Shown in pieces: positions 25,730 through 28,002 of a DNA stretch of 64,000 nucleotides. The position numbers were made by a program, and so were the translations under genes. Under the pieces are notes generated by a model, which saw nothing but the letters and a program-made list of their open reading frames with translations, was not told the DNA's origin and searched no databases. The number at the start of each line of letters is the position of its first letter. Within the stretch, counting starts at the first letter, position 1. The DNA comes from Escherichia phage ERS-1. The stretch lies in the sequence record PP337211. One strand, 5' to 3'.

Positions 25730-28002
25730 AGGTTCTCGGTCCGAAGGCCGGGTGCCCGTTGGACGGCGGAGGGCGAACCGTTGAGGCCTTCTTCCCTGAA
25801 GGCCCGGGCGGCGTCCCTCGTGCCCTGGTTCTCCTGTACCGGCTGGTTGCGCCCCGAGGTGTGCGGTACCCTGGCGACCTCGAAGCCCTGCGACGTCCTG
25901 GCAAACCCTTGCCGGTGGAAGTCCTGGCGCTGGGCCGGATAGCCGAAAGCCTCTGCGACGTCTCCGCCGGGTCAGGAGGATGACGTGCCGACCGCCGGTG
26001 GTGGGCCTCCACCGCGGCCGCGGGCACCCCGCGTCCCGGGCGGGCCGCTTGTCGTCCCGCTTCCGGCGCCCCGGGAAGGTGTGGAGGGTGTCGGCGCGGT
26101 CGAAGGTCTTGAGGTAGTCCTTGGCGATAGGCCCGCCTGCTTCGCCCTACGCCCTCCCGCGGAGGACCGCGGAGGGGAGCCAGGGGCCGGTCGGGTCCGT
26201 GTTAGGTCCGGCGCTGGCCGATGAGTAGGGGCTTGTTCGGTTCTTCGGGCTCCTCGCTTTCTTCTGGTGACGTTTGGTTTGAGGGCTCGCTCTGTACCGG
26301 GATGGCCCTTTGGGGTGTCCTGGTTGCGCGAAGGAGGAACCCGGCCGGTGAATCTGGGTACCGCCTTCTGTCTGTCCTTTGCACCCTCTCCGTCCGGTGG
26401 CCGGGTCGACGCGGTCCGGCTCGCCGGCTCCTCCGCCGGGGCGTCCGCTTCGGGCTCGCCGCCGTCTCTTCCTTTGCCAGGATGCCCACCGCTTCCCGCC
26501 GGGCGGAAGGTCGTGTGCCCTTCGCCCCGCCTTCCCTGGTGCTGGCTGTGTCCCAGTCTTCCCGCTGATGTCGGAGCTGCCGCCGCTCCGCTCGCCGCGG
26601 AACGACCCGCTGGGCGGCGACGGGCGGGGCGGCGACGTGTTCCTGGACGGTGACGCGGGAGGGGCCTTGCCGCGGACCCGAACGCGGTCCGTAGTCCCCC
26701 GCCTTCGCCTCGCGGGCCGCCTGAACTCGACGGCGGTGCGGTCGAAGCTGTAGGCGAGTTCGGCCGGACCGGAGCTGACGTTGTCGGGCGTGCCGACGGT
26801 CCCGGTCGGGGCGATGGAAGTGAGGTGGGAGTTGCGGATGCCGTATTTGGCGATGGCGTCCTGCGTCCTCGCGGAGGGTCTTGATGAACTGGCCCTGAAG
26901 GTACTTGTCCTTGTCGAACTTCGGGAAGGAGCCCTTGACCTTGGCGATGTGGGCGCTGCCTGGTAGGCTGCGCGTGCGCGTGTCGGTACCCTGCCTCGAA
27001 GGCGAGGAAGGCGGGCGAACCGTACGCGGCCTGGCTTCGCGCGTTGCCCTGCCGGCGATCCCGAGGCCCTTGCGGCGCTTGTCCTTGGCTTCCTGCTTCT
27101 GCTGCGGCGGGTACATCGCGCCATCAACCCGTTGCCATCGCGCGGACCACCTGCGGATGTCCTCGCGGACTGGTCCCGTCGAAGGCGTAGCGGCCCGCCC
27201 CGTCCTCTAAGATGTACTTGACCTGTTGAAGGAGCCCAGGAGGCAGGCACCGTAGGGCGGCAGGGGTTGCTCGCCGGTGGGGTTCGTGGCGGCGATGGTC
27301 TGGCGTCCTGGCGCTCGTTTGCGGTTGATCGCGTCGATTAATGGCGTACCCGGCTCCGCCTGTCCCGTTCGTGCGATCGCGTCCTGGCGCCTGGGCGTCG
27401 CTTCGCGGGCAGGTCTGGCCCTCGAAGGTGAGGGGAACGGCTCGCCGGAGGCGATGCGGCGCTGCCTTGTCGGTGATGGCGACGGAGACGTTGAAGCTGG
27501 TTGCTTTGGGTCTGCCGAAGGAGACGGGCCGCCGCTTCTGGGCTCCCTCCGGGAGTTGGTCCAGGTCCGGCGGCTGAACGTCCTTCCCGGGTTGCTTGGC
27601 GTGAATGAACTCCTCGATGTCGGGATGGTCCGCGGATCGTTGTCCGGGCTCCGCGGCGATGGCCGGCAGGAGGCGACGGCTGGCAATCGCGTCGAAGATG
27701 TGGGTGAAGCTGATGGGGCCGGAGGAGTGGGACTGGAGCTTGCGGATCGGTCGCCGCGAGGACGGAGGGTGCTGAAGTCAGGCCGATCCCCGCCGCCCTT
27801 CCCCGGTATCGCGTGGCCGCGGCTTCCGCGGCCCGGATCGCTTGACGGAGCCTTCGCCGTCCCAAGCTGTCGTTGATCGTCCCGGAGACGTAGGTTGTAT
27901 GGCGTGACCTGGCGAGTGGAGCCCGTTTGCGGACTGGATGCGGCCCGCCGGGAGGAAGCTGCGCCTGGAGGGCGTCCCGGAAGTCCGCGAAGTGCTGGTC
28001 AT
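25730..28002 (-). CDS. Ribonucleotide reductase, class II-like large subunit
   Basis: Minus-strand segment [22 protein letters not shown] (about 27225-27290) matches the RNR NPCGE...CNLGS active-site region, but with T for the radical Cys and L for Asn. Gene size between the helicase and motif copy 7 fits an RNR. Start at 28002 is tentative. Confidence 0.45.

Follow-up and report, generated by a model that had tools for sequence, protein, structure and literature searches.

A threonine at the radical-cysteine position of a phage ribonucleotide reductase (record PP337211) is very probably a basecalling artefact of hypermodified Yuavirus DNA

The stretch of DNA analysed here (the window, 64,000 nucleotides of sequence record PP337211, Escherichia phage ERS-1) carries on its minus strand a ribonucleotide reductase gene which, as written, is broken into many frames and has threonine in place of the radical cysteine of the active site. 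We consider it highly probable that the window is a raw nanopore read of hypermodified Yuavirus DNA, that the threonine is an artefact of basecalling, and that the phage encodes an intact class II reductase with the motif NPCGE, in which the leucine found at a second position of the same loop is native. The gene is that of a Yuavirus, the errors are specific to TG dinucleotides on the strand that was read, sequencing adapters and barcodes stand inside the window, and leucine is the residue of the whole clade. The closest relatives together with the error model point to TGC as the true codon of the radical site in this phage, and the TG-specific miscalls most likely stem from a hypermodified thymidine.

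The reductase gene and its active-site loop

The gene occupies positions 26380 to 28149 of the window (minus strand), as placed by base-by-base alignment to positions 5798 to 7660 of the phage LKO4 genome, and is the orthologue of LKO4 gp07 (YP_009601794.1, 620 aa), which adjoins a Dda-like helicase on one side and a uracil-DNA-glycosylase-like gene on the other. The surrounding stretch (25800 to 28200) matches 94 phage records, 64 of them from Pseudomonas phages. The best matches are to siphoviruses of Pseudomonas aeruginosa in the genus Yuavirus (LKO4, AN14, BL8, Chuck and others); to LKO4 and about 60 further records of this genus the stretch is about 84% identical over its full length, with about 90 bases absent from the window. 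The same gene at the same genomic position, and of identical length, is found in LKO4 (gp07), M6, PAE1, SN1 and other Yuavirus phages, and the window copy agrees with it in long error-free runs between TG sites. Three minus-strand frames near the active-site loop are each open in stretches that contain reductase peptides (HPDIEEFIHAKQPGKD, FNVSVAITDK and IAKYGIRNSHLTSIAPTGT); the gene is thus present yet repeatedly frameshifted. Compared codon by codon with LKO4 gp07, 445 of the 620 codons are identical, 93 contain an insertion or deletion and 82 are substituted. In bases, this amounts to 110 deleted, 17 inserted and 150 substituted over 1863 nt, in agreement with an earlier note, made from the letters of the window, which had expected substitutions as well as indels to be frequent if the sequence were in error. 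The start codon reads ACG, not ATG, and 10 of the 13 cysteine codons of the gene are corrupted. The differences from LKO4 gp07 and the other Yuavirus reductases, all of which keep NPCGE, cluster at and around TG dinucleotides of the strand read, with a small share of real divergence.

Profile scores assign the gene to the class II, adenosylcobalamin-type (NrdJ) reductases. The PF02867 barrel domain is recognised both in the frame-corrected protein of the window (E=1.4e-58, 199 bits against a cut-off of 23.9) and in LKO4 gp07 (E=9e-107). When the frame-corrected protein is compared with the class I and class II families, a check that the earlier note had proposed, the top model is NrdJ_Z (TIGR02504). 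LKO4 gp07 reaches 518 bits with this model, above the equivalog cut-off of 399.95, and scores far lower with class I models. The window protein, in which 93 residues are X and 82 are substituted, falls short of the cut-off at 286 bits because of the read errors, with 133 bits for the NrdE_NrdA model. Many GenBank records label the phage reductase as ‘ribonucleotide reductase of class Ib (aerobic), alpha subunit’, a name which the NCBIfam profile scores do not back, the class Ib model TIGR04170 giving 84 bits against a cut-off of 750. No NrdB or NrdF small-subunit gene is listed in the LKO4 feature tables, no dedicated search having been made for one.

The active-site loop, ATNP[T]...[L]LGSFN with the two residues of concern in brackets, lies at 27225 to 27290 (minus strand) and was located by translation and by alignment, through LKO4 gp07, to residues N320 to S337 of Thermotoga maritima NrdJ. 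Its 22-residue peptide (27290 to 27225) sits in a 159-aa fragment of open reading frame (ORF) at 27207 to 27686. The T. maritima enzyme (PDB 1xje) is the closest relative of LKO4 gp07 with a solved structure; in the alignment of the two the loop pairs with INSTNPCGEIGLSDYEACNLGSIDV, and the PF02867 barrel, the NPCGE loop and a second cysteine 11 residues downstream align residue for residue. The T. maritima numbering used here (N320, C322, E324, C333, N334) was counted from this printed alignment. In that enzyme C322 is the thiyl-radical cysteine, C333 belongs to the redox pair, and the catalytic asparagine and glutamate are N320 and E324. The identification of the segment as the NPCGE...CNLGS region of ribonucleotide reductases, as put forward in the earlier note, is borne out by this alignment and by the 84% DNA identity over 2.4 kb.

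The codon of the radical cysteine (27276 to 27278, minus strand; LKO4 C303, T. maritima C322) reads ACC, threonine, where LKO4 has TGC. The codons around this site are AAC CCC TGC GGT GAG in LKO4 and AAC CCC ACC GGC GAG in the window, and the N-x-C-x-E motif formed by T. maritima N320, C322 and E324 accordingly reads N-P-T-G-E, at a TG site with a miscall rate of 85%. The second active-site cysteine (27243 to 27245, minus strand; LKO4 C314, T. maritima C333), the partner in the redox pair, stands about 11 residues downstream of the radical site, and its codon TGC is read correctly. The earlier statement that the radical cysteine is a threonine therefore holds for the letters at 27278 to 27276; as a statement about the enzyme it very probably does not, the codon being attributed to a TG miscall.

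The codon that follows the second cysteine (27240 to 27242, minus strand) reads CTC, leucine, and corresponds by alignment to Asn334 of T. maritima. LKO4 has a leucine codon here as well (TTG, within TGC TTG TTG GGC, C-L-L-G), and NPCGE together with C-L-L-G/C-S is found in 120 of 120 close homologues (97-100% identity, intact at 607-621 aa, M6, PAE1 and SN1 among them). In 127 more distant representatives with a detectable motif (40-68% identity) the residue is leucine in 94, cysteine in 16 and asparagine in seven, so that the phage clade reads CLLGS where T. maritima reads CNLGS. Because LKO4, all of the close homologues and 94 of the 127 representatives carry leucine, leucine is the native state of this reductase clade, and a change from asparagine to leucine is ruled out as a defect. 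The leucine pointed out in the earlier note is indeed read there, but no asparagine has been lost: the catalytic asparagine is the N of NPCGE, which is still present there, and the equivalent of Asn334 is a different, non-catalytic residue. The radical site of the representatives with a detectable motif is NPCGE, NPCAE or intein-CGE in every case. Many relatives of the reductase are 800-1500 aa long, with a match that breaks at query residues of about 299-303 and motifs that read HNCGE, GNCGE or SNCGE, an arrangement consistent with inteins inserted at the radical cysteine.

Errors specific to TG and to the strand read

The whole window was aligned to the complete LKO4 genome. The window contains two parts of Yuavirus DNA, described by a blastn map, in both of which the minus strand is the strand read. 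The first, at 1 to 57949, is a nearly full-length molecule of a Yuavirus genome, running from about 35.9 kb in LKO4 through the start of the LKO4 record to position 35150; window positions 1-57578 are collinear, in minus orientation, with nearly the whole 61.8-kb LKO4 genome at a nominal identity of 76-92%. The second, at 58582 to 64000, is a Yuavirus fragment corresponding to LKO4 18435-24106 (DNA polymerase to primase) and, as map and error pattern both indicate, comes from the opposite genomic strand; it duplicates a stretch within window positions of about 9160-19173.

On the minus strand of the first part, the T that precedes G in CTG, ATG, GTG and TTG is wrong in 85, 79, 78 and 76% of cases, as compared to 4-12% for most non-T contexts. 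For the second part the corresponding rate is 71-74%, at the A after C in CAG, CAT, CAA and CAC on the plus strand of the window, and this A is again the T of TG on the minus strand. The T of TG is thus miscalled, on one strand, at 73-85% over the window, and 15-25% of the TG sites are read correctly. The error rate is highest at this T, 0.81 in one part and 0.73 in the other, and falls to its baseline over about 4-6 nt; a thymine with no TG within 6 nt is wrong in only 3-8% of cases, like C and G, and the thymines of TC, TA and TT are at background. Of isolated TG sites, 93% have an error within 2 nt (89-97% over all 16 NTGN contexts), as compared to 21-37% of control 5-nt windows (TC 27%, TT 25%). 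As the errors are confined to TG on the strand read, the codons of cysteine (TGY), tryptophan (TGG) and methionine (ATG) are hit preferentially. Codons that contain TG are intact in only 4-12%, and by amino acid the intact share is 9% for Trp, 10% for Cys, 10% for Met, 33% for Leu and 38% for Val, most others being at about 70%; these codon statistics cover all LKO4 plus-strand ORFs of at least 100 aa (68.7 kb), including some spurious overlapping ones, by which the contrast is diluted, not created. The TGC of the radical cysteine is preceded by C, and so stands in CTG, the worst of the four contexts.

The duplicated region of 5.4 kb, read once from each strand, provides an internal control. 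A TG thymine is wrong in 80% of cases when its own strand is read and in 19% when the complementary strand is read, and the A of CA shows the reverse (21% and 72%). Errors that switch strand with the read are not in the DNA sequence. At about 1.4% of the positions in this region both reads show one and the same difference from LKO4, owing in part to real divergence and in part to T to C and A to G miscalls that happen to coincide. A second control is given by the unmodified DNA contained in the window, that is the adapters, the barcodes and a short T4-like insert, in which 23 of 23 TG thymines are correct, as against 644 of 3345 (19%) in the Yuavirus DNA (Fisher p = 5e-17). The basecaller therefore has no general problem with TG, and the trouble lies in the Yuavirus DNA itself.

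The control sequences lie between the two parts of phage DNA, at 57950 to 58533 (minus strand), and comprise Oxford Nanopore adapters together with three native barcodes (NB02, NB03, NB08) that are flanked by AAGGTTAA and CAGCACCT, all found by blastn-short. In minus-strand order, the arrangement begins with GCT-AAGGTTAA-ACAGACGACTACAAACGGAATCGA-CAGCACCT (NB02), the T4-like insert, the reverse-complemented NB02 and TTAACCTTAGCAAT, and continues with an adapter ending in TACTTCGTTCAGTTACGTATTGCT, NB03, an AT-rich insert, the reverse-complemented NB03, an adapter, NB08, CAGCACCT and the phage genome. The adapter sequence with this end is that of Oxford Nanopore; it is identical in 23 of 24 positions at 58264-58241. 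NB02 with both of its flanks is identical in 40 of 40 positions (58507-58468), its reverse complement stands at 58293-58320, and the start and end elements of NB03 as well as NB08 are present with few errors. The barcode and flank sequences were compared with the oligonucleotide list in PMC10593777. Adapters and barcodes inside the window mean that it represents an unsplit or concatenated set of raw reads from several molecules, not an assembled genome. Its letters are those of a raw, single-pass nanopore run on a barcoded library of native, unamplified DNA, given as the reverse complement of the read.

The same damage is found in an independent record. The best database match, Pseudomonas phage EKU1 (GenBank PV844354.1), is deposited as a ‘complete genome’ of 57,133 bp, as compared to about 61.8 kb in its relatives, and its reductase is annotated as fragments. 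Against LKO4, thymines are in error in 19% and cytosines in 1.7% of cases, with 51% in GTG, 44% in CTG, 36% in TTG and 33% in ATG. At the codon of the radical cysteine (region 2385-2480) EKU1 has a deletion of three bases, unlike the ACC of the window. That two independent data sets are damaged differently at one and the same TG site speaks for a systematic miscall and against a mutation.

Thymidine hypermodification as the likely cause

The window contains, at 18123 to 24698 (minus strand, coordinates by alignment), a cassette for thymidine hypermodification collinear with LKO4 gp12 to gp20. In LKO4 the cassette encodes an amino acid:DNA transferase, a pyridoxal phosphate (PLP) enzyme, a radical S-adenosylmethionine (SAM) enzyme, a 5-hydroxymethyldeoxyuridine (5-hmdU) DNA kinase, Nmad5 and a ThyA-like enzyme. 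Pfam matches to PF18724, PF00291, PF18723 and PF00303 are above the cut-offs, PF18757 is also matched, and the radical SAM family PF04055 is weak (22.4 bits against a cut-off of 29.5). The profiles were scored on the clean LKO4 proteins, the copies in the window being too error-ridden to be scored individually.

In phage M6, the type of this group, about 30% of the thymidine is replaced by 5-(2-aminoethyl)-deoxyuridine (5-NedU); the same base has been predicted for YuA, PAE1, LKO4 and AN14, its motif being described in 2018 as not yet known (PMC5889632). Conversion of 5-hmdU takes place in sequence-specific contexts (PMC8989533), and sites in M6 DNA that resist restriction were found in 2019 to be enriched for TG, TC or TS (PMC6449724). 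The same cassette is present in LKO4, with which the window is collinear, and 32.8% of all LKO4 thymines stand in TG when both strands are counted, close to the share of about 30% measured in M6. Compared to the restriction study of M6, the pattern found here points to TG alone, on both strands, the modification being deduced from the miscalls.

The threonine codon may be accounted for as follows. Native DNA of the Yuavirus group of M6, YuA and LKO4 would carry a bulky hypermodified base in part of its thymidines, and the modified T of essentially each 5'-TG-3' on the threaded strand would give a signal that the basecaller cannot decode. The TG thymine would then drop out or be called as C, A or G, with bases up to about 3-4 nt away affected too, and the TGC of the radical cysteine, in its CTG context, would in this way be called ACC and read as threonine. 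A bulky and charged thymidine derivative at each TG is a sufficient explanation for a signal specific both to the strand and to TG. On balance, we lean towards reading the miscalls as a single-molecule footprint of the modification, with a modified base at essentially all TG on both strands and in no other context.

Methylated motifs of the Dam and Dcm type are familiar sources of systematic nanopore miscalls that are specific to strand and motif. The pattern described here differs from these in degree: about 80% of the sites are miscalled, many of them as deletions, the footprint extends about 4 nt to each side, and all genes are shattered, as compared to occasional errors in a consensus.

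Alternative explanations

Taken at face value, the letters describe a phage with a dead reductase or a decaying pseudogene, in which the change from cysteine to threonine and the frameshifts are in the DNA; the sequence as written, with threonine at the radical site and the gene broken into many frames, is what speaks for this. The density of lesions is, however, equal in all genes over 57 kb, including those of the polymerase, the terminase and the capsid, which is incompatible with a packaged and viable genome. Moreover, the lesions are specific to the strand read and most of them vanish in the read of the opposite strand, sequencing adapters stand inside the window, and each of the 120 close homologues, intact at 607-621 aa, has NPCGE. 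A true pseudogene or dead enzyme is ruled out by the strand-switching control and by the adapters, and we give this possibility virtually no weight. The proposal of the earlier note that the enzyme would be inactive if the substitutions were real consequently finds no support in these strand-specific errors, embedded adapters and uniformly conserved homologues. A subtler possibility is that the read is noisy and that a real non-cysteine codon nevertheless lies at the radical position beneath the noise. A single pass is uninformative at any one site, and a fraction of the TG sites is, as noted above, read correctly, both of which leave room for such a codon; against this, cysteine is kept in all 120 close homologues and in all representatives with a detectable motif, the change from TG to AC removes exactly the dinucleotide that is miscalled at 85% in the CTG context, and the remainder of the loop is conserved. 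A hidden substitution of this kind is extremely unlikely.

The errors might also reflect ordinary nanopore noise, or a general weakness of the basecaller at TG in GC-rich DNA, without any modification. Context-dependent errors do occur in raw nanopore reads, and the modification is deduced here from the miscalls only. A general TG weakness is nevertheless ruled out by the control in which all 23 TG thymines of the adapters, barcodes and T4-like insert are correct, as against 19% in the phage DNA; miscalls at 80% of one dinucleotide, with baseline errors elsewhere, are far too strong an effect for generic noise; and the lineage encodes a pathway for hypermodification, with about 30% modified T in M6 matching the 32.8% share of TG. 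Noise without modification is accordingly improbable, if somewhat less so than a hidden substitution. Several observations weigh against the explanation preferred here, a basecalling artefact in hypermodified Yuavirus DNA. LKO4 is a different phage, so that a small share of the mismatches is real divergence; the base at 27278-27276 is unreadable from one noisy pass; the signal of a modified base is an indirect one, given by basecalling errors; and a literature search on Yuavirus, nanopore and modification found no account of TG-specific miscalls. Furthermore, the A of CA and TA on the strand read is called G in about 20-26% of cases, also where the nearest TG is more than 6 nt away, which is not explained by a modified T on the threaded strand. 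As CA is the complement of TG, these A to G calls could come from a modified base on the displaced strand, from an admixture of the complementary strand, or from a bias of the basecaller in GC-rich DNA.

Other sequences in the window

The long phage read opens at 57949 (minus strand) with CGCCACACGCTCCTGACC, directly after the barcode flank. In related phages this start maps to the small terminase region or to a point just upstream of it (for example at PSP2 36474), and it may be a physical end of the genome. Five stretches of the long read (172-798, 2043-3070, 19173-19672, 40044-40368 and 50390-50727) have no blastn alignment to LKO4 and presumably represent variable or accessory regions of the Yuavirus genome. 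Of the two short inserts between barcode elements, the one flanked by the NB02 elements (58314-58467, about 150 nt) matches Tequatrovirus phages at 92.5% over 104 nt, and belongs to another sample that was pooled into this run. The AT-rich insert between the NB03 elements (58074-58198, about 125 nt) has no match in the phage collection.

Implications

The biological outcome for the reductase is a minor one: nothing points to an inactive enzyme, and the gene is in all likelihood a class II reductase already known, in intact form, from a phage genus that has been studied well. The consequences are wider for the reading of such genomes. When the native DNA of phages with hypermodified thymidine is read by nanopore, the codons of cysteine, tryptophan and methionine and many of those of leucine and valine are lost and frameshifts appear, all in a motif-specific manner. 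Scans for ‘dead’ active sites or pseudogenes will give false alarms on such reads, and at least one public record (PV844354.1) carries the same damage. As a by-product, the error footprint offers a plausible genome-wide motif, TG, for hypermodification in this lineage. If the miscalls do represent a footprint of the modified base, this would account for the approximately 30% modified T in M6 and would establish for which context the 5-hmdU DNA kinase step is specific.

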